From the NCBI GenBank assembly GCA_038046785.1, contig JBBSVM010000003.1, positions 211,228 to 275,227 of the forward strand: a DNA stretch of 64,000 nucleotides. The letters are read 5' to 3'. The translations under genes were made by a program, and so were the position numbers. This document shows positions 1,390 to 41,950 of the stretch, one piece after another. Numbering within the stretch: position 1 is the first letter of the stretch; every line of letters begins with the position of its first letter. The stretch comes from Thermoplasmatota archaeon (GTDB lineage Archaea; Thermoplasmatota; E2; JACPAO01; JAHFTW01). Below the pieces are notes generated by a model. That model searched no databases. It had not been told where the DNA came from and saw only the letters and a program-made list of their open reading frames with translations.

Positions 1390-2217
1390 GTGCGCATCCT
1401 GGTGGCGAACCGGTCCGACCCCGCCTCCTGCAACTTGCGCGACCAGCTCCTCGCCTCGGGGCGGTGGGAGGAGACGAACCGCACCTTCCGCGGCCATGCG
1501 ATGTGGTCGCAGAGCGAAGCGGTTCTGGTCCAGGTCGATGGGCCCGCCATTACCGACGAGGCGCTCGACGGCGACTTGCGCGCGACAGCGCTTCCGGTGC
1601 GCGACGTCTGGTTCCTCTCCAAGCACGCCGCCGCCTCCGGCATGCCGAGCCTCACCGTCCACCCGATTGGCAACCCGGGCGAGGCAAAGTTCGGCGGTCG
1701 CCCGGGCCAACTTGTCCCCGCTGCGGCGCGCGACATGGGAGCGCTGCTGCGCCGGATGCGCCACCACGCAACACGGCTCGGCCTGCCGCACCAGGTGGCG
1801 TATGAGGCGACACACCACGGCCCTTACCTCTCGTTCCCGTCTCTGTTCGTCGAGATTGGCTCCGACGACCGCTGGTACCGCGATGCCGCCTCGGGCGAAG
1901 CGGTCGCCTCCGCCATCCTCGACGTCCTCTCTGGTGAAGGCGCATCGCGCGCACCGGTCTGGGTCGGCATCGGAGGCGGCCATTACGCTCCGCGGGCCAC
2001 CGACATGGCGCTTGAGGGAGAGGCGGATTTCGGCCACCTCATCCCGAGCCATGCCCTCGAAGCGGCCGCCGACGGGCCAGCACTTCTGCGGCAAGCGTTC
2101 GCTGCGACGCCCGGCTGCGCTGGCCTTCATCTCCACCACAAAGGGATGAAGGGCGCTCTGCGCGCGCAGGTTCTGGCTTGGTGCGCCGAGGCGGGGCTCG
2201 CCGTCGCCAACCCGTGA
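1390..2217 (+). CDS. dtdA: D-aminoacyl-tRNA deacylase, archaeal type (DtdA)
   Basis: 275-aa protein whose length and N-terminus (MRILVANRSDPAS...) resemble archaeal D-Tyr-tRNA deacylases. GTG start at 1390. Confidence 0.75.
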   Translation: MRILVANRSDPASCNLRDQLLASGRWEETNRTFRGHAMWSQSEAVLVQVDGPAITDEALDGDLRATALPVRDVWFLSKHAAASGMPSLTVHPIGNPGEAKFGGRPGQLVPAAARDMGALLRRMRHHATRLGLPHQVAYEATHHGPYLSFPSLFVEIGSDDRWYRDAASGEAVASAILDVLSGEGASRAPVWVGIGGGHYAPRATDMALEGEADFGHLIPSHALEAAADGPALLRQAFAATPGCAGLHLHHKGMKGALRAQVLAWCAEAGLAVANP

Positions 2218-2240
2218 GAGCGTAAACGGGCATCGCACCT

Positions 2241-3209
2241 GTGCGAACACTTCCTGAAGTGGTCGCGCTTCCTCCCCGCGTTGTGGCCCAGCCCCGGACC
2301 CTTCTCCTCTCCGCCTTCGCGGCGGTCTATCTCATCTGGGGCAGCACCTACCTCGCCATCCTCATCGCCATCGAATCGATGCCACCGCTCCTGATGGCGG
2401 GCATCCGCTTCCTTGCCGCGGGCGCCATGCTCTGGCCGTTTGCTCGCCCCGGGCCTGGCGAAGCCGCGACGCCGACGCGGCGCGACTGGGCATGGGCCTT
2501 CCTGCTCGGATTCCTCATGTTCCTGATGGGCAACGGTTTCGTTGTTCTTGGCGAACAGTCCCTGCCAAGCGCCGTCGTCGCCCTTCTCGTCGGCGCCGTC
2601 CCGCTCTTCCTCGTTCTCTTTGAATCCATGCAAAAACGGCTTGCTCCCGGCCCCCTCGTGGTGGCGGGACTGGGTGCAGGCCTCGTCGGCGTTGCCCTGC
2701 TCGCCTCCGCCAAAGAGGGCTGGAAGGGCGATTTGGGGCTCTGGGCACTTCTCGGCGTGATGCTGGGAAGTGCTGGCTGGGCCGCCGGCTCGCTGCTGTC
2801 GCGCCGGAACCCAACGCGGCTGCCCCTCCTTCGCAACGTTGCCCTGCAGATGGTGGCGGGCGGCATCTTGCTCACTGTTGCGGCTCTCCTGCGCGGCGAA
2901 CACCGCGGCTTCGACCTCGCCGCCGTGACCGAGCGCAGTTGGCTGGCATGGCTCTACCTCGTTGTGTTCGGCGCCGTCGTCGCCTTCACCGCCTACGCCT
3001 GGCTGCTGCGCAACGTCGCCCCCGCCGTGGCGGGAACGTACGCCTTCGTCAACCCCATCGTCGCCGTCGTTCTTGGCGCCCTGTTTGCACGAGAGCCCAT
3101 TGGAGCGCGCACCGCTGCCGCCGCAGTCCTTGTCGTCGCCGCCGTGGCGCTCATCACACTCGACAAGGCGCGCGCCAGCCGCAAGGCAAAGCAGGACGCC
3201 GCCGCATAG
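2241..3209 (+). CDS. EamA/DMT-family transporter
   Basis: About 10 TM helices with a duplicated EamA-like architecture and typical motif AAVYLIWGSTYLAI. GTG start. Confidence 0.7.
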   Translation: MRTLPEVVALPPRVVAQPRTLLLSAFAAVYLIWGSTYLAILIAIESMPPLLMAGIRFLAAGAMLWPFARPGPGEAATPTRRDWAWAFLLGFLMFLMGNGFVVLGEQSLPSAVVALLVGAVPLFLVLFESMQKRLAPGPLVVAGLGAGLVGVALLASAKEGWKGDLGLWALLGVMLGSAGWAAGSLLSRRNPTRLPLLRNVALQMVAGGILLTVAALLRGEHRGFDLAAVTERSWLAWLYLVVFGAVVAFTAYAWLLRNVAPAVAGTYAFVNPIVAVVLGALFAREPIGARTAAAAVLVVAAVALITLDKARASRKAKQDAAA

Positions 3210-3278
3210 CCGAGGTTCCACAGGAAATCTTGCGATAGCCATCACCACCGTTATCCCCGCGACACCCATCCGTAGCGC

Positions 3279-5180
3279 GTGGCAGAGACCCTCGTTCCCG
3301 ACACCTCCGTGCTGGTGGATGGCCGCATCACCGAACTGGTGAAGGGCGGACAGTTCGCGGGCGCCAAGGTTCTCGTGCCGCTGGCCGCACTCTCAGAGCT
3401 GGAGGCGCAGGCGAACCGAGGACTCGAGACCGGGTTCGCCGGCCTCGACGAGTTGGCGGCGCTGCAGAAGCTCGCCGCGACCGGTGCCATCGCGGTGCAG
3501 TTCGTCGGCGAGCGCCCCTCGGCCGACGAGATTGAGCGCGCCAAGTCGGGCACCATCGACGCCCGCATCCGCGACGCCGCCGTGGCGGCCAAAGCGATCT
3601 ACGTCACTTCCGACCGCGTCAGCGCCCACGCCGCCGCCGCGCAGGGCATCCGTCACCACTACGTCCGCCCCATCGTGCAGGCAACACCGGACCTGACCGG
3701 CCTCAAGCTCTGGCAGTTCTTCGACGCGCAGACCATGTCGGTCCACCTCAAGGCGGACTGCGTCCCGATGGTGAAGCGCGGCCGCCCCGGCGAGGTCGCC
3801 TACCAGCCGCACGGCCCCGCCTCCAAGGAGATGGCGCACACCGAGCTGCGCGCCATCGTGCGCGAGTGCATCGAGCACTGCAAACGGGACTACAACTCCT
3901 TCATCGAGATGGAGAAGCACGGCTGCACCGTCCTGCAGGTCGGCCCGATGCGCATCACCATCGCGCAGCCGCCCTTCTCGGACGGCCTCGAGCTCACGGC
4001 AGTGCGCCCCATCACGAAGAAGCACATCGCCGACTACGAACTGAATGAGGACATCCTGGGCCGCCTGGAAGGGCACGCGCGTGGTCTCTTCATCGCCGGC
4101 CCGCCCGGCTCGGGCAAGTCCACCTTCGCCGCCGCCGTGGCGGAGCATCTGCACAGCCTCGCCCGTGTCGTGAAGACCATGGAGCAGCCGCGCGACCTGC
4201 AGGTTCCCAAGGAGGTCACGCAGTACGGCGCCCTCGACCGCGACATGAAGTGGACCGGCGACGTCATTCTGCTCGTTCGCCCCGACCATGTCCTCTACGA
4301 CGAGGTGCGCACCACCGAGGATTTCCGGACCTTCGGCGACATGCGACTTGCTGGTGTCGGCCTGATTGGCGTGACACACGCCAACCGCGCCATCGACGCC
4401 GTGCAGCGCCTGATTGGCCGCATCGACCTCGGCATGATTCCACAAGTGGTGGACACCGTCCTCTTCATCGACGCCGGCCGCATCGCCCAGATTCTCGAAC
4501 TGGAATACACGGTCAAGGTGCCCGACGGCATGGTCATGGAGGACCTCGCCCGCCCGGTCGTCGTCGTGCGCGATGTTCTTGCCGGCCAGCCGGTGTACGA
4601 ACTCTACACCTACGGCGAGCAGGTGGTCGTCATGCCGCTCAACCAGACGCAGGCGACCCGCGACCCCGCAAGCCAACTTGCCGAGAAGGAGCTGGAGCGC
4701 ATGCTGCGCCGCACCGTGCAGGGCCCGATGGAGGTCACCGTGCGCGGAGGAAAGGCCATCGTCAAAGTGGACGAGTCGGAGGTTCCGCAACTCATCGGCA
4801 AGGGTGGCCGCACCGTGCAGGGCTTGGAGCGCAAACTCGGCATCCGGCTCGACATCAAAGCGCTCACCGGCCCGCCGCGCGGCCGCGACGACGACCGCCA
4901 CCAGGGCGGTTGGGACGGCAAGCGGCCCGCATCCGCTGGCATGCGCGGCGCCGCCGGCGTCCCGCGCATCCGCGTCAAACGCGCCAGCACCAACATCTTC
5001 CTTCTCGTCGATGGCGCCAAGTCGGGCCAGGTGTACCAGGTCGAAGCTGAGGGCGCCATCATCGGCGAGGCGACCGCGAGCAACCAAGGGCGGCTGCGCT
5101 TCAAGCTGGATACCCCGGAAGGCATGGCGCTCGACCAGGCAGACAAGCGCGGACTGGTCCTCTCCGTCCAGGTTGCGTAG
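3279..5180 (+). CDS. PIN domain / PhoH-like ATPase / KH domain protein (archaeal PIN-ATPase-KH family)
   Basis: N-terminal PIN-like region, Walker A GPPGSGKST, C-terminal KH motif (LIGKGGRTVQGLERKLGIRLDI) and an extra ~100-aa tail. GTG start at 3279. Confidence 0.75.
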   Translation: MAETLVPDTSVLVDGRITELVKGGQFAGAKVLVPLAALSELEAQANRGLETGFAGLDELAALQKLAATGAIAVQFVGERPSADEIERAKSGTIDARIRDAAVAAKAIYVTSDRVSAHAAAAQGIRHHYVRPIVQATPDLTGLKLWQFFDAQTMSVHLKADCVPMVKRGRPGEVAYQPHGPASKEMAHTELRAIVRECIEHCKRDYNSFIEMEKHGCTVLQVGPMRITIAQPPFSDGLELTAVRPITKKHIADYELNEDILGRLEGHARGLFIAGPPGSGKSTFAAAVAEHLHSLARVVKTMEQPRDLQVPKEVTQYGALDRDMKWTGDVILLVRPDHVLYDEVRTTEDFRTFGDMRLAGVGLIGVTHANRAIDAVQRLIGRIDLGMIPQVVDTVLFIDAGRIAQILELEYTVKVPDGMVMEDLARPVVVVRDVLAGQPVYELYTYGEQVVVMPLNQTQATRDPASQLAEKELERMLRRTVQGPMEVTVRGGKAIVKVDESEVPQLIGKGGRTVQGLERKLGIRLDIKALTGPPRGRDDDRHQGGWDGKRPASAGMRGAAGVPRIRVKRASTNIFLLVDGAKSGQVYQVEAEGAIIGEATASNQGRLRFKLDTPEGMALDQADKRGLVLSVQVA

Positions 5181-34009: not shown

Positions 34010-34630
34010 ATGACGACAACGGTCGGCATCAAGACGCCCGAGGGCATCGTCCTGGCGACGGACCGCCGCGCGACGATGGGCTACTACGTCGCGGACAAAG
34101 ACGTCGTGAAGATTGAGCCTCTCGACGACGACTCCGCCATCACCATCGCCGGCTCGGTCGCGCAGGCCCAGGCCTACGCCCACCTGCTGCGCCTCAACCT
34201 GGAGCTGTTCAAGACGCGGCGCGGCTGGGCGCTCTCGCCGCAGGAGCTCGCCAAACTCGCCTCCTACACCATCCAACGCTCGGGCGGCGTGTACGGCCAG
34301 TTCATCCTCGCTACGCGCGGCTCCGACGGCACGCACCTCTGGGACGTCGGCGGCGACGGCTCGCTCATCAGCAAGAAGGACTTCACCGTCACCGGCTCCG
34401 GCACCGGCCCCGCCGTCGGTGTGCTTGAGTCCGCGGACTGGGCCAAGATCAAGAACCTGAAGGACGCCGTGGAGCTGGCCAAGCGCGCTGTGCGCGCCTC
34501 GACGCAGCGCGATGTCGCATCGGGCAACGGCTACGTCGTCTTCGTGCTCCCCAACTCCGGCCCCTCCAGCCTGAAGACCTTCACCTTCAGCACCGAAGTC
34601 ACCGAAGACACGCTCGAGGTGAAATCGTGA
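34010..34630 (+). CDS. psmB: 20S proteasome beta subunit
   Basis: Sequence MTTTVGIKTPEGIVLATDRR with catalytic Thr directly after Met and a GSG motif. Confidence 0.85.
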   Translation: MTTTVGIKTPEGIVLATDRRATMGYYVADKDVVKIEPLDDDSAITIAGSVAQAQAYAHLLRLNLELFKTRRGWALSPQELAKLASYTIQRSGGVYGQFILATRGSDGTHLWDVGGDGSLISKKDFTVTGSGTGPAVGVLESADWAKIKNLKDAVELAKRAVRASTQRDVASGNGYVVFVLPNSGPSSLKTFTFSTEVTEDTLEVKS

Positions 34631-35289
34631 AGCCGCCCGTGGACATGGCCTACCTGCACTTCGACGAGTCGGGCGCTGTTCCCGCCATCAAGTTCGCCCG
34701 CATCGCCGTCAGCATGGGCCTCCCCATCCTCGCGGCCCGCAACGAGCAGGGCGTCGTCGTCGCCACCGTCAACCGCGAGGGCGCCCAGCTCTTCACCGGC
34801 GCCGACAAGGTCATCCGCGTCAGCAAGGACTGCGTCGTCCTCGTCACCGGCCACGGCGGCGACACGAACCAGATTCGCCAGACGCTGCGTGACCTCGCCG
34901 TGAACCACAAATTCCTGCTCGGCAGCGAAGTCTCCCCCAAGGAGGTCAGCCTCGCGCTCTCGGACTACCTGCACCAGCTTGGCATGAGCTACCGCCGCCC
35001 GCTCGGTGTCGGCATCATCGTCGCCGGCTTCGACCGCTACGGCCAGACCCCCGTCATCTACCACTGCGACGTCGACGGCAACGCCACCGACCGCGTCGGC
35101 ATCGCTCTCGGCAAGGGCGCCTCCGAGGCAGAGCATGTCCTCGCCGACGCCATCAAGTCGAAGAAGCCGCTCGAAGCCGCCCTGAAAGCGGCCGCCGAGG
35201 CGACCATCAAGGGCATGAAGGAAGGCAGCGTCGATTTGGCCTCGCAGAGCTTCCGCGTCGATGTGGAAGTCCTGAAGCCCTCGAAGTAG
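34627..35289 (+). CDS. psmA: Proteasome alpha-type (non-catalytic Ntn-fold) subunit, divergent
   Basis: Alignable to alpha subunits (FDESGAV~FSPDGRL, IKFARIAV~VEYAREAV) and has no N-terminal Thr. Overlaps the psmB stop (ATGA). Confidence 0.55.
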   Translation: MKPPVDMAYLHFDESGAVPAIKFARIAVSMGLPILAARNEQGVVVATVNREGAQLFTGADKVIRVSKDCVVLVTGHGGDTNQIRQTLRDLAVNHKFLLGSEVSPKEVSLALSDYLHQLGMSYRRPLGVGIIVAGFDRYGQTPVIYHCDVDGNATDRVGIALGKGASEAEHVLADAIKSKKPLEAALKAAAEATIKGMKEGSVDLASQSFRVDVEVLKPSK

Positions 35290-35300
35290 CGCCCTTCTTT

Positions 35301-35371
35301 GTCGCAGATGACGCAGATTTCTCAGATTGTTCCGGTTGTACGGAATCTGAGAAATCTGCGTCATCTGCGAC
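35301..35371. repeat. Perfect 28-bp-arm palindrome with 15-nt loop, built from CAGAT half-sites at about 10-bp spacing
   Basis: gtcgCAGATgacgCAGATttctCAGATt / loop gttccggttgtacgg / exact reverse complement. Confidence 0.9.
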
Positions 35372-35411
35372 AGGTCGTATCGCTTCGCAAGCCTGAAGGG
35401 CGCCTCCCGGA

Positions 35412-36083
35412 GTGGGCACTCCCATGCAAGAGGGCATCGGGCGGGGCGGCTATCGCATCCTCGCCATCGTCTTCCTGGTCGTCGGCCTGCTCGGCATCGC
35501 CGCGTTCGCCGTCGCCTACACCCGCAACAGTGCCGCCGCGTTTGCGCTTGGCTGCGGCCTGGTCGGCGCCGCTCTCATCGTTCTCTTCGCCATCGCTTTG
35601 CGCGGCGTGTCGGGACGCACTGCGTCCTCGAACGCTCCGGCTCCCGGACCCGCCGGGGCGCCGCGCCCAGTGCGCGACCTGAACGTGGAATACCTCGATG
35701 CCGAGGCGGACGCGGAGTCCGAACCGGAGCCGCCTGCCCGTCGCGCGCGCGGCGCCGTGCCGGCTCCGCCCAACCGCAACCTTACCCAGGACACGAAGGG
35801 CTGGCCGAGCCGCAAGGGGCCGACCGGTGTGACGCGCGGCGAAGCGCGCAAAGGCCCTGTCGAGTTCGCCTCCGTCGAGGCGGTCGCCGTGCCGCGCGCC
35901 AGCCTGCGCGCCCCCAGCGAGCCCCCCACCGTCTTGGCGCGCGAAGTGGCGCGCAACGCCAAAACGCCCGAGGGGATGGCGAAGGGAGCGTGCGGAACCT
36001 GCAACGCCATCCTCCTCGCCCCCAAGGTGCGGCCGCTCAAACTGCGCTGCCCCGCCTGCCAGAAAGTTACGCTGGTGGCGTGA
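35412..36083 (+). CDS. Membrane protein with C-terminal zinc-ribbon (hypothetical)
   Basis: Two N-terminal TM helices, a disordered acidic/basic linker, and C-terminal CGTC...CPAC. Confidence 0.45.
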   Translation: MGTPMQEGIGRGGYRILAIVFLVVGLLGIAAFAVAYTRNSAAAFALGCGLVGAALIVLFAIALRGVSGRTASSNAPAPGPAGAPRPVRDLNVEYLDAEADAESEPEPPARRARGAVPAPPNRNLTQDTKGWPSRKGPTGVTRGEARKGPVEFASVEAVAVPRASLRAPSEPPTVLAREVARNAKTPEGMAKGACGTCNAILLAPKVRPLKLRCPACQKVTLVA

Positions 36084-38636: not shown

Positions 38637-40340
38637 GTGACGGTTCCCGCCGGCATCGACTGGAGACCGTGGGAGGCCGCGACGTTTGCCACGGCCCAGC
38701 GTGAGCGCAAACCCATCTTCGTTAACGTCGCAGCGGGGTGGTGCCACTGGTGCCACGTCATGGACAAGGAGACGTTTGGCGACCGCGCCGTCCAGGAAGC
38801 TCTGCGCTCCTTCATCGCCATCCGCGTCGATGCCGATGCGCGGCCCGACCTGGCGGAGCGCTACGGCGAATGGGGCTGGCCCGCCAACGCCCTGCTGACG
38901 CCGGATTCTGAGCCGTTCACCGAACTGCGCGGCTACCAGGAGGCGGCTCCGTTTCGCGAGCTGCTGCAGTCGGTGGCCGCCCAGGCGAAGGCGGGAACCC
39001 TGCGCCGCGCCGTCGTGCCGCCGGCTCGCCCCGCGGTGACGGGCGACCTGGTGGAACTACGCGACCAGGTCGCCGCATCGCTGCTGCGCTTCTACGACCG
39101 CAAGGTGGGCGGCTGGGGCGGCTTCCAGAAGTACCCCCATCCCGGACCGCTTGAGGCGTCCTGGCTGGAGGCGGCGCGCGGCAACGAGGCGGGCCGCCGC
39201 CGCGCCGAGCAGACGCTTGCGGGCATGACGCAACTTCTCGACCCGGTGTGGGGCGGCTGCTACCAGTACTCCACCCACCACGGCTGGACGACACCGCACT
39301 TCGAGAAGATCGCCACCGTGCAGGCCGCAAGCCTGGCGTCGTTCACCGAGGCGTGGCAACGCACCGGCAACGCGTCGTACCGCGACGCCGCCAACCGGCA
39401 GGTGCGCTACCTCACGACGTGGCTGCAATCCGCCGAGGGCCCCTTCTTCACCAGCCAGGACGCCGATGCGACCCGCCCCGATGGCTCCACCGTGAAGGGC
39501 GAGCGTTACTATGGGCAAAGCGACGCCAAGCGGCGCACCCTCGGGTTGCCGAAACTGGACCGCTCCATCTACGCCGACTGGAACGGCCAACTCCTGCACG
39601 CCCTCGCCCGCCACGCCGCCGCCACCGGGGAGACCAGCTCCTTGGTCGCAGCCGCCCGCGCCGCACGCCGCCTGCTCGCGACCCACCAAGAGCCGTCGGG
39701 CGCTTTCCGGCACGCCGAACGTCCGGATGCGATTCTTCACTTGCGCGACAACGCCGCAATGGGACGCGCCCTCCTCGCCCTCTCCCAGGGCTCCGGCGAC
39801 CCATCGTGGGCCGTCGAGGCGGAGCGGGTGGCGCGCTGGATGCTGGCGAACCTCCAGGCGCCGGAGGGCGGCTTCTGGGCGCACAGCAAAGACCCCGCCG
39901 CAGCAGGCGTGTTCGCCCAACGCCGGCGCCCGCTCGAGGAGAACGGTTTGGCGGTGCGCTTCCTCGTCGAGGTGGCATGGCAGAGCGAAGACGAGGCGCT
40001 TGCTGCCGCCTGCCGCACCGCCGCAGAACGGGCCGCGCGCGTCCTGGGCGATGCTGAACTTGTGGCCGCCGAAGGCAACCTGATTGGGCAGTTCCTGCTC
40101 GGCATCGAATGGCTCCTGCTCGAGCCCACCAAAGCGGTCGTCGTCGGTGCCGCCGCGGGGGAACCGCTGTGGCAGGCCGCGCTCGCTCTCGCCGCACCCG
40201 GCCTCGTGGTGCGCGCTCCTCACTCGGGTGAATATCCCCCCGTACCGAGCCCTGCCGTCTACCTCTGCCGCGGCAACGCCTGCAGCCGACCCGTCACCGA
40301 TGCGGCCTCTCTCGCCTCCGAGCTCGCACGAATGCTCTAA
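38637..40340 (+). CDS. Thioredoxin-domain (DUF255) protein with six-hairpin glycosidase-like domain (YyaL / SSP411-like)
   Basis: N-terminal thioredoxin-like CHWC, then about 400 aa of (alpha/alpha)6-barrel-like region. Confidence 0.7.
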   Translation: MTVPAGIDWRPWEAATFATAQRERKPIFVNVAAGWCHWCHVMDKETFGDRAVQEALRSFIAIRVDADARPDLAERYGEWGWPANALLTPDSEPFTELRGYQEAAPFRELLQSVAAQAKAGTLRRAVVPPARPAVTGDLVELRDQVAASLLRFYDRKVGGWGGFQKYPHPGPLEASWLEAARGNEAGRRRAEQTLAGMTQLLDPVWGGCYQYSTHHGWTTPHFEKIATVQAASLASFTEAWQRTGNASYRDAANRQVRYLTTWLQSAEGPFFTSQDADATRPDGSTVKGERYYGQSDAKRRTLGLPKLDRSIYADWNGQLLHALARHAAATGETSSLVAAARAARRLLATHQEPSGAFRHAERPDAILHLRDNAAMGRALLALSQGSGDPSWAVEAERVARWMLANLQAPEGGFWAHSKDPAAAGVFAQRRRPLEENGLAVRFLVEVAWQSEDEALAAACRTAAERAARVLGDAELVAAEGNLIGQFLLGIEWLLLEPTKAVVVGAAAGEPLWQAALALAAPGLVVRAPHSGEYPPVPSPAVYLCRGNACSRPVTDAASLASELARML

Positions 40341-40360
40341 CCACCGATGGGCCGCATTGG

Positions 40361-40428
40361 TCACAGATTTCTCAGATTCCTCAGATTCTACGCCAACAAC
40401 CAATCTGTGAAATCTGCGCAATCTGCGA
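40361..40428. repeat. Second, diverged copy of the CAGAT-array palindromic element
   Basis: The right arm aatctgtgaaatctgcgcaatctgcgac differs at 3 positions from the 35301 element arm. The left arm keeps 3 CAGAT sites at 9-bp spacing but has diverged spacers. Confidence 0.75.
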
Positions 40429-40486
40429 CTTCGTCGGTCGCTCTGCCCTCCGTAACTTCAAGCAGGGGAGCGGCGTCCAAGAGCCG

Positions 40487-41950
40487 ATGGCCCACGCGCC
40501 AAGCATCGTCCGCGCCCTGATTCAGGAAGCCAAACGGGGCGGCCGCCCCATGGTGTTCCTGCTGCGCGAGGCGCGCGCCATCGAGGAGCCATCGCACGCC
40601 GCCGAGGCGCTCTTTGCGCTCTCCGAATTCGTGCCCGAAGACCAAGCGGGCAACGTCCTTGGCGAAGTGGCCGGACTGGTCGGCCAAGTGGAACGTGGCT
40701 GGCGCCGCGCCGAGGTCATCGCCACTCTCGCCAAACGGGGCCCAAGCTGGCGCAACGGCGACGACATGGACGAAACGTTGGACCGTTTCCAGCGCTCGCT
40801 CGTCCGCCTCACGCTCGACCTGGAAGGGTCCGACCTTTCCGCAGCGCTGCCCAACGTGGCGCGCTGGTGCCCCGAAGACTTGATGGTGGACTTGCTGCGC
40901 CGCGCCCTGACTGCGGGCAGCAACCCGTTGGAGGACGGCAAGTGCGTTCTGGCGCTCGGCGAGAACGCCGGCCTGGTCGACCTCCTCATGAGTTGGCCCG
41001 ACGCCGCGCTGCGCTCGCGGCTTCTCGCTTACCACCACAACCACGCCGCGACCCCGCGCCTGGCCGACGCCATCGCAGAGTCCACGAAACTTTCCCCCAA
41101 GGGCCAAGTTGAGGTTCTGCGCGGCGTCATCGCCAGCCTTGCCGAGGCCGACCTGGAGACCGTCCACGCGGCCCTGCCCACCGACCCTGAAAGCCGCGCC
41201 CGACTGCTTGCCGCCCTCGCCGCTCGCGCCGACCGCCTGGGCGAGAAGGGCAAGGCGGCCGCTTGGTTCGCGGAGGGAACTGCGGTCGCTGCCGCAATTC
41301 CCGAGGAGAAGGCGCGCACCAACGTTCTCGCCAATCTTGCCAAAGGGACCGAGCGGCTTGTCACCGGCAAAGCTCCGGCGCCGCCCCCTTCGCGCCCGGA
41401 ATCCAACATCCGCATCACCGCTCCCGCCGCTCCGACGGCCGTCGGTCGCCCCATCCTCGCTCTCGTGGACACCTACGACGGAAATCTCGGCGAAACCCAC
41501 TTGCGTGCCATCGGCCGCGCCGCCCCGCTCTGCTGGGCGTTCGGCCTCGACCTCGCCCTCGTCGGCTTCCCCGGAACCCTCGAAGAGACAGTGAAAAAGG
41601 CGGCCAAGGAGACCCACATCGGCGAAGGCGAAGGCTACGTCACCGAGCTCGCGGGCGCCAGCCGCATCCACTGGGTTCCGGTCACCGGCGGACTGCCCAC
41701 CTGGCCCGGCCTTCCCATCGCCACGACGCCGAGCCCGGACCCTGCCAAGGCGGTGGATTTCCCGCGCGCCCAGGAGCTGGCCCGTGGCACCCCGCTCGTC
41801 GTCCTCATGGGGCTCGGTAAACGCGGTCTGCCTCCTGGTTGGCTCAAGGTTCTGCCGCACCACTTGGAACTCACCGGGCGGCGCGTCAGCCTGGAGACCG
41901 CCACCGCAATGGGCATCATCGCTGAGCGCATGCGGCAGCTGAAACCGTAA
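40487..41950 (+). CDS. Hypothetical protein; alpha-helical N-terminal domain plus SPOUT-like (DUF531-like) C-terminal domain
   Basis: C-terminal ...VVLMGLGKRGLP...SLETATAMGIIAERM resembles SPOUT motif III. Weak homology call. Confidence 0.4.
   Translation: MAHAPSIVRALIQEAKRGGRPMVFLLREARAIEEPSHAAEALFALSEFVPEDQAGNVLGEVAGLVGQVERGWRRAEVIATLAKRGPSWRNGDDMDETLDRFQRSLVRLTLDLEGSDLSAALPNVARWCPEDLMVDLLRRALTAGSNPLEDGKCVLALGENAGLVDLLMSWPDAALRSRLLAYHHNHAATPRLADAIAESTKLSPKGQVEVLRGVIASLAEADLETVHAALPTDPESRARLLAALAARADRLGEKGKAAAWFAEGTAVAAAIPEEKARTNVLANLAKGTERLVTGKAPAPPPSRPESNIRITAPAAPTAVGRPILALVDTYDGNLGETHLRAIGRAAPLCWAFGLDLALVGFPGTLEETVKKAAKETHIGEGEGYVTELAGASRIHWVPVTGGLPTWPGLPIATTPSPDPAKAVDFPRAQELARGTPLVVLMGLGKRGLPPGWLKVLPHHLELTGRRVSLETATAMGIIAERMRQLKP

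Follow-up and report, generated by a model that had tools for sequence, protein, structure and literature searches.

The stretch examined here is 64,000 nt of DNA from a Thermoplasmatota archaeon (GenBank assembly GCA_038046785.1, contig JBBSVM010000003.1, positions 211,228 to 275,227), herein referred to as the window. A perfect palindrome built from CAGAT pentamers follows a proteasome gene in this window, and a related, decayed palindrome is located about 5 kb further on. The question raised by this locus is whether these palindromes (copy 1 and copy 2) serve the genes next to them or arrived there as mobile elements. Their assignment to a family of inverted arrays of CAGAT-containing 9-mers is well supported. 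We regard it as probable that both are non-autonomous members, lacking an open reading frame (ORF), of a selfish inverted-array family associated with a nuclease, comparable to miniature inverted-repeat transposable elements (MITEs) and to the hairpins formed by paired repetitive extragenic palindromes (REPs), known as REPINs. In coordinates of the window, the two elements have the following parts.

35300 to 35372, no strand: copy 1, a complete ORF-less inverted-array element with two 29-nt arms and a 15-nt spacer.
35300 to 35328, plus strand: left arm of copy 1, TGTCG-CAGAT GACG-CAGAT TTCT-CAGAT T, with the terminal unit GTC-G-CAGAT.
35329 to 35343, no strand: spacer (loop) of copy 1, GTTCCGGTTGTACGG.
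35344 to 35372, minus strand: right arm of copy 1, the exact reverse complement of the left arm.
40360 to 40429, no strand: copy 2, a decayed ORF-less sibling element with 29-nt arms and a 12-nt spacer.
40360 to 40388, plus strand: left arm of copy 2, GTCA-CAGAT TTCT-CAGAT TCCT-CAGAT TC.
40401 to 40429, minus strand: right arm of copy 2, with the reverse complement GTCG-CAGAT TGCG-CAGAT TTCA-CAGAT TG.

The initial annotation reported a perfect palindrome with 28-bp arms at 35301-35371. This palindrome is real, and a repeat search of the window gave 100% complementary arms of 29 nt, one base pair more on each. Its stem is prolonged past a 3-nt bulge by TTCCG/CGGAA pairing inside the spacer, and the predicted RNA fold has an energy of -59.2 kcal/mol (z = -12.7). 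The relationship of the second copy was also described correctly: its right arm agrees with that of copy 1 at 25/28 positions (89%, three substitutions), and its left arm has diverged, with 5/28 positions different from the left arm of copy 1. The two arms of copy 2 mismatch each other at 6/29 positions, every one of them outside the CAGAT cores. The RNA fold of this copy has -23.8 kcal/mol (z = -3.7), with pairing essentially limited to the cores.

Each arm in the window consists of three 9-bp units. Thus, the three CAGAT pentamers per arm that had been noted earlier are present, whereas the spacing of 9-10 bp, equated then with one helical turn, is exactly 9 bp from start to start in all cases and so less than a turn. 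The array is kept where hairpin complementarity is lost, as had been proposed, and this is true of copy 2 and of the whole family. The pattern CAGATN4CAGAT has eight exact matches in the 64 kb, all eight inside the two elements; a ninth match, with one mismatch, lies within the proteasome gene. None of 100 shuffled sequences reached the observed count of nine (shuffle mean, 1.7), which, together with the fold of copy 1, agrees with the earlier opinion that the palindrome did not arise by chance. All four window arms end in GTC-R-CAGAT, with a single C where the family form (A/G)(T/A)CC-R-CAGAT has CC. This is a rare end type among the more than 600 family arms, which are dominated by ATCC, AACC, and GTCC. 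The complementarity of the window copies ends 5 nt beyond the outermost unit, as it does in the family.

Further copies, for which a pattern search had been recommended, were sought with CAGATN4CAGAT-N8-38-ATCTGN4ATCTG in one genome per species (GTDB); this pattern admits only gaps of 8-38 nt between the inner cores. Matches were found in at least 119 genome contigs, nearly all with the same unit, ends, and layout, and the element is carried by 47 viral contigs. A few of the listed matches look like chance or unrelated repeats (e.g., L045, L058, L060, and L103). According to the record titles, the hosts belong to Acidobacteriota, Chloroflexota, Verrucomicrobiota, Planctomycetota, Bacteroidota, NC10, Nitrospirota, Ignavibacteriae, Cyanobacteria, Alpha- and Gammaproteobacteria, and a bacterium of the Candidate Phyla Radiation, with more than ten bacterial phyla overall. 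Archaeal carriers among the matches listed are two metagenome-assembled genomes (L013 and L022). Cultured organisms are also among the carriers, namely Gemmatirosa kalamazoonensis, Asticcacaulis biprosthecium, Geothrix fuzhouensis, and Flavobacterium artemisiae. The sole match among plasmids is the Gemmatirosa megaplasmid. No copies were found in 5,426 Escherichia coli genomes or in GenBank phage records.

The unit consensus, derived as a logo from 178 elements, is T-W-C-R-CAGAT with an invariant CAGAT core. A family arm contains two to four tandem 9-bp units, and the inverted arms surround a variable, short, and non-conserved loop; the commonest pairings are 2+2, 3+3, 2+3, and 3+2 units. The outermost unit is usually (A)TCC-R-CAGAT, with ends such as ATCC-R-CAGAT or AACC-R-CAGAT. 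Within an element, the two arms agree at 63% of the variable positions, compared with 43% between elements (178 elements), and the cores are therefore the constant feature of the family. The window copies share this layout, with three units per arm at 9 bp, inverted arms, and spacers of 15 and 12 nt. In one nested pair (L030, 7658-7826) the outer element has a core spacing of 10 bp and the inner element one of 9 bp, so that the length of the unit is open to some variation.

The family elements are mostly intergenic. No recurrent specific neighbor gene was found among the 119 listed loci, where the neighbors are generic ones such as response regulators, short-chain dehydrogenases/reductases, and ABC ATPases. 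The window and 18 bacterial element loci gave no match in Rfam 15 at the gathering threshold, and permissive thresholds gave merely generic hairpin (miRNA-model) matches far below it. Full-text literature searches with 13-14-mers of the repeat returned only unrelated primers, and no paper describing the arrays was found by the names of the protein family or by the repeat sequences.

The history of the two copies was followed in four Thermoplasmatota contigs (L167, L168, L170, and L172), of which L167 is the nearest relative, with 83-87% nucleotide identity to the window. The gene order common to these relatives is DHH, proteasome beta, proteasome alpha, an unnamed ORF, M61 peptidase, another unnamed ORF, DUF255, and DUF531. 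Copy 1 is missing from the orthologous spacers of L167, L168, and L172, and copy 2 from those of L168 and L170. At the first site, BLAST alignments break at 35292-35385, where about 92 nt of the window stand against about 10 nt in L167 and about 22 nt in L168. At the second site (40330-40450), about 119 nt of the window correspond to about 4 nt in L168 and about 56 nt in L170. No CAGAT arrays were found in approximately 78 kb of the relatives' sequence. Since the relatives keep the gene order without either palindrome, both are lineage-specific insertions. On these alignments, the two copies would have been inserted in this Thermoplasmatota lineage after its split from the sequenced relatives, into permissive spacers. 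In L170, the equivalent of window positions 35290-35411 (L170 4687-5151) contains, in place of copy 1, a HicA/HicB toxin-antitoxin pair encoded in the opposite direction; insertions have therefore landed more than once in the gap that follows the proteasome gene. A composite transposon formed by the two window copies was considered and rejected, since the four genes between them are syntenic in relatives without the copies.

A coding partner of the arrays was found in Candidatus Thiosymbion oneisti (L077), where CAGAT arrays frame a gene at 3275-3755. Its ORF (3348-3737, 129 aa) matches TIGR04256 'GxxExxY protein' (2e-41) and PF13366 PDDEXK_3 (3e-38). The surrounding 2.2 kb (1672-3893) form a local hot spot with a 480-bp ORF-less element, a truncated left end, the GxxExxY cassette, and a short palindrome, as well as an ORF pair that was read as a putative toxin-antitoxin system. 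The association was then tested from the side of the gene in 80 metagenome loci encoding GxxExxY relatives. A forward array within 200 nt upstream of the gene was found at 57/80 loci, a reverse array at the 3' end of the gene at 59/80, and both at 47/80. Any array within 250 nt was found at 74/80 loci, compared with 9/330 control windows more than 400 nt away. Inverted periodic 5-mers were present at 59/80 loci and in 0/59 shifted control windows, and every periodic motif in this test was part of the CAGAT-type unit. The array positions are sharply peaked at both ends of the gene. The typical cassette has approximately 440-480 bp, with one gene for a protein of about 125 aa between the arrays. 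The near-invariant C-terminal tail of this protein, NLRESA, is the translation of the right array AATCTGCGnGAATCTGCG and is disordered in the structure model. Short palindromes stand beside cassettes in the same locus, for example in L077, L175, L179, L181, and L212.

The GxxExxY/PDDEXK_3 family is listed as having an unknown function, with multiple transfers between Bacteria and Archaea (PMC3424549). It comprises at least 7,994 clusters at 90% identity and 26,188 clusters at 50% identity (E ≤ 0.001), and many of its members are encoded on contigs of about 1 kb. The residues D67, E77, and K79 are conserved in at least 90% of 89 diverse sequences. The AlphaFold2 model from these sequences has a predicted local distance difference test score (pLDDT) of 93.8; it replaced an earlier, poor model from 32 close homologues (pLDDT 54). 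The fold in this model is Cas4/RecB-like and the D-E-K triad is intact, as would be expected of an active nuclease. A sequence search of the PDB found no relatives, PADLOC found no match to a defence system, and a scan of viral contigs with the single Thiosymbion protein as a query found no relatives of it. Distant GxxExxY genes on viral contigs (31-52% identity) are accompanied by arrays with the altered cores CGCAGAA, CACGGAT, ACGGAAT, and CCGGATGAA. These few cases are suggestive as a first hint that gene and array may co-vary, and common descent would also explain them. At least seven cassettes (L189, L192, L195, L198, L200, L207, and L208) occupy one common gene spacer, the flanks of which read as the 3' end of a metK-like gene and the 5' end of an ahcY-like gene; this suggests one old insertion inherited vertically within a clade.

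Several traits of the family bear on mobility. One element may be located in the loop of another that differs in end type and at the variable positions (L030, L064, and L068). Distinct elements share the end type in 65% of comparisons within one locus and in 30% of those between loci, and many of the listed copies are placed at contig ends. The target-site duplications that had been suggested as a check were looked for: none of 97 well-bounded copies has a direct flank repeat of 4 bp or more, repeats of 2-3 bp occur at chance level, and neither window copy shows a duplication. Across approximately 1.3 Mb of loci, no two paired arms enclosed a transposase ORF, the sole coding cargo found being GxxExxY. 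A search for a transposase-bearing insertion sequence by long-range pairing of arms yielded only housekeeping genes between separate hairpins (e.g., L068 2759-3853). Two loci display larger repeated arrangements. In Flavobacterium artemisiae (L039, 953-1663), modules of about 160-180 bp, each with two-unit arms, one forward and one reverse, separated by about 90 nt, follow one another head to tail, and the element was therefore tandemly amplified there. In L104, two nearly identical palindromes (754-826 and 2127-2199) lie 1.37 kb apart with both flanks identical, so that the repeated unit extends beyond the palindrome itself; just downstream of the second copy is a four-helix-bundle-like ORF (2407-2958, minus strand) with its own, different tandem array.

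In the mechanism that we propose, the 9-mers would be recognition sites, which the nuclease of the element would read as a row of identical sites in each arm. The two arms could be brought together as a DNA hairpin or cruciform, or as synapsed ends, and breaks made by the nuclease would allow the unit to copy itself or move with no duplication of the target site. Copies without a gene, such as the two in the window, would be acted on in trans, as REPINs are by REP-associated tyrosine transposases (RAYTs) or MITEs by their parent insertion sequence (IS). The way of mobilization and the recognition of the 9-mers by the nuclease or by another trans factor are both inferred. In the operon transcript, copy 1 would form a 29-bp RNA stem and could be a site of processing or stability, like the stems of the intervening sequences (IVSs) in 23S rRNA. 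A conserved service of the elements to neighboring genes is not indicated.

The genes on either side of the two window copies are the following.

34627 to 35289, plus strand: proteasome subunit gene, upstream of copy 1.
35412 or 35424 to 36083, plus strand: ORF without a Pfam match, downstream of copy 1.
38637 to 40340, plus strand: DUF255/Thioredox_DsbH gene, upstream of copy 2.
40487 to 41950, plus strand: DUF531 gene, downstream of copy 2.

All four neighbors are thus encoded on the plus strand, in agreement with the initial annotation, which had placed both copies between co-directional genes; each copy begins just past a stop codon. An exact look-up of the proteasome protein returned no record; its closest homologues bear Thermoplasmatota or Thermoplasmata names. 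The window has a G+C content of 63-71% and contains no tRNA or Rfam match in its 64 kb. For the ORF after copy 1, the listed start is GTG 35412; the ATG at 35424 (ATGCAAGAGGGCATCGG) is the more likely start, since conservation with the relatives begins only there. A 20-nt stretch, TCGCAAGCCTGAAGGGCGCC, lies at 35385-35404, about 20 nt upstream of this ATG and just downstream of copy 1. L167 and L168 have kept most of it, at about 17-19 of 20 positions, and L172 has not; the remaining spacer is unconserved. The stretch could serve the gene downstream as a promoter-proximal or leader signal.

Four roles had been offered for the palindromes at the outset, and a mobile palindrome of the MITE/REP type was the one that found support. 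Absence in relatives, occurrence in many phyla, lack of a common neighbor, and nested copies speak for it; the missing target-site duplications and a partner gene that encodes no known transposase do not. The lack of duplications means that the elements are not classical MITEs. Accordingly, we consider it quite improbable that they are deletion derivatives of an IS with a DDE transposase and the same terminal inverted repeats, moved by cut-and-paste: they do have terminal inverted repeats, small size, no coding capacity, many copies, and lineage-specific insertion, yet the flanks of the 97 copies and the transposase-free spaces between arms described above contradict such an origin. Least probable of all is an array of operators for a factor that co-regulates the cluster of proteasome, peptidase, and thioredoxin-like genes. 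Two copies stand within this one cluster, the cores are kept where pairing is lost, and short direct and inverted repeat arrays are typical of ribbon-helix-helix repressors. However, the sites are missing in four relatives with the same gene order, so that this reading is contradicted by synteny; the identical motif stands beside unrelated genes in more than ten phyla, and sites that follow one another at 9 bp do not share one face of the helix. The transcription-factor operator named in the initial annotation falls with it. Two more specific candidates were likewise discarded. The outer unit of some bacterial copies, TTATCCACA-GAT, is similar to a DnaA box; the internal units do not match, and archaea presumably have no DnaA. 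Subterminal repeats of the IS607 type were rejected because the IS607 family reportedly has no terminal inverted repeats.

Two other proposals had concerned RNA. An intrinsic terminator is not supported, as neither hairpin is followed by a run of T (the stem is succeeded by AGGTCGTATCG in copy 1 and by TTCGTCGGTCG in copy 2), and a small structured RNA found nothing in Rfam beyond the sub-threshold hairpin matches. More generally, the palindromes might be a REP-like RNA or DNA structure exapted by the host as a transcript stabilizer, a processing site, a pause, an attenuator, or a site for a nucleoid or topology protein. The RNA hairpin of copy 1 is very stable, both copies stand between co-directional genes just past stop codons, and RNase III cuts the stems of 23S rRNA IVSs (PMC4990558). 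Across the family, convergent gaps (31) are somewhat enriched and divergent gaps (15) somewhat depleted in relation to a roughly equal background, as judged from crude gene calls. To our knowledge, however, most archaea have no RNase III. The relatives have the same operon without both copies, copy 2 has lost most of its pairing and kept the cores, the T-run is absent after both hairpins, and only the 9-mers are conserved. We therefore hold such an exaptation to be unlikely; the data do not call for a host-level role of an RNA hairpin.

The alternative that comes closest to our interpretation reverses the dependence between gene and palindrome. The short palindromes would then be primary, spread or generated by another process, and the window copies would be unoccupied homing sites. 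GxxExxY, as a putative homing-endonuclease-like protein, would cut the empty loop and be copied into it by repair, with the arrays as homology arms. This model fits the same data as the favored one and differs from it mainly in direction. Other copies do insert in loops, the gene is always enclosed by the arms and runs directly into the right array at its 3' end, intermediate elements have no gene remnants, and I-Bth0305I is among the weak fold matches; homing endonucleases of the PD-(D/E)XK type exist, e.g., I-Ssp6803I. We judge it rather unlikely, given that it leaves the arrival of ORF-less palindromes at new loci (e.g., the two window sites) unexplained and that arms of 28 nt are short for recombinational repair.

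Our preferred interpretation, in which the window palindromes are gene-less members of the nuclease-associated family, has its own difficulties. The filled and empty sites are too diverged for base-exact insertion ends, the identity of the nearest relative to the window being only 83-87%. Members of the family do not in general need a perfect hairpin such as that of copy 1, as the arms of one element agree at only 63% of the variable positions. Neither the 64-kb window nor the two archaeal loci (L013 and L022) were found to contain a GxxExxY gene. Intermediate elements, with 90-430 nt between the arms, have no recognizable remnant of this gene, and the short forms are therefore not demonstrably deletion products of cassettes. 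Judged from the sequences, the association of gene and array could equally mean that the gene invades pre-existing hairpins.

With these reservations, the family is apparently undescribed in the searchable literature, very widespread, and tied to an abundant orphan nuclease family. For the GxxExxY family this provides a DNA context, i.e., a cassette and gene-less hairpins in many phyla and in archaea, and with it a testable role as the nuclease of a selfish element. It also accounts for a class of perfect palindromes between genes at which metagenome assemblies break, and annotators are warned not to take such palindromes for local regulatory sites. The window itself is locally ordinary, with two insertions of a repeat element and no evident role for them in the proteasome gene cluster.

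Among known systems, the REP/REPIN-RAYT system is similar in its short, dispersed intergenic palindromes, with many copies, no target-site duplication, and genome-specific subfamilies, and in a small, single, repeat-flanked gene for the presumed mobilizing enzyme. The differences are clear at each level. A REP is one imperfect palindrome with a 5' GTAG, whereas the elements described here are stacks of 9-bp TWCRCAGAT units without GTAG; RAYTs are HUH/Y1 enzymes (domesticated, of the IS200/IS605 type), whereas the partner here belongs to PF13366 and has a PD-(D/E)XK fold of the Cas4/RecB-like kind; and REP sequences are species-specific, whereas the CAGAT motif is common to many phyla and both prokaryotic domains. 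With MITEs the elements share small size, lack of coding capacity, terminal inverted repeats, lineage-specific presence, and a longer coding relative with the same ends. Unlike MITEs, they have no target-site duplication, no transposase of a known family, and ends made of two to four tandem sub-repeats.

The IVSs of 23S rRNA in Leptospira and Coxiella are similar in architecture: a cassette of about 440 nt, an inverted-repeat stem of about 28 bp, and a single ORF of about 120 aa. The IVS of Coxiella burnetii is a 444-nt selfish element with a 28-bp inverted-repeat stem cut by RNase III; its one ORF encodes the four-helix-bundle protein S23p, and three tandem GACAGAT heptamers are located in its 5' part (PMC4990558). 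IVSs are regarded as selfish, with mobility unknown, and ORF-less short forms exist. The 29-bp stem of three 9-mers in the window thus has a counterpart in the 28-bp Coxiella stem with three copies of GACAGAT. In contrast to IVSs, which are inserted in helices of 23S rRNA, the window copies lie between protein-coding genes, and there is no rRNA in the window. The cargo also differs (PF05635/Avd-like as against PDDEXK_3), as do the unit length (7-8 as against 9) and the motifs.

Genes for four-helix-bundle proteins (PF05635/PF22296, Avd-like) were found on 31 viral-contig loci (L253-L283), none of them with CAGAT 9-mers. Visual inspection showed inverted arrays of 7-8-nt tandem repeats around nearly all of them, with a motif that varies by locus (for example ACTGTTGG, GTAGTCTG, GGAGTCT, CGTTACAC, and AGGAACTA); a strict exact test found such arrays at 12/25 loci, compared with 0/24 shifted controls. 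Several of these genes are located inside larger genes or between phage genes. Thus, the placing of a small gene between inverted stacks of short tandem repeats recurs with two or more families of cargo, the likeness being one of architecture and the arrays analogous. This parallel makes the origin and mobility of rRNA IVSs directly testable.

A further lead comes from cyanobacteria. Mazel et al. reportedly described in 1990 intergenic 7-nt tandem repeats of unknown function, the short tandemly repeated repetitive (STRR) sequences. Some STRR motifs, such as CAACAGT, resemble the four-helix-bundle arrays found here (L272, ACTGTTGG), and this likeness is offered as a lead only. In contrast to these arrays, which form inverted pairs around a gene, STRRs are described as plain tandem runs.

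Taken together, these comparisons lead us to propose, tentatively, a pan-prokaryotic mobile class of inverted tandem-array cassettes, in which a tiny gene would stand between inverted stacks of 7-9-nt repeats. The cargo would be either the GxxExxY PD-(D/E)XK nuclease or an Avd-like four-helix-bundle protein, and the class would spread, along with gene-less hairpins, over bacteria, archaea, and viruses without target-site duplications. We see this as a possibility that is as yet doubtful as a whole. If true, the class would unite the 35-year-old puzzle of the 23S rRNA IVSs and possibly the cyanobacterial STRRs, bring in the two orphan families of small proteins that are most abundant in environmental genomes, and imply a new mobilization chemistry, in which a Cas4-like nuclease reads a row of repeats.

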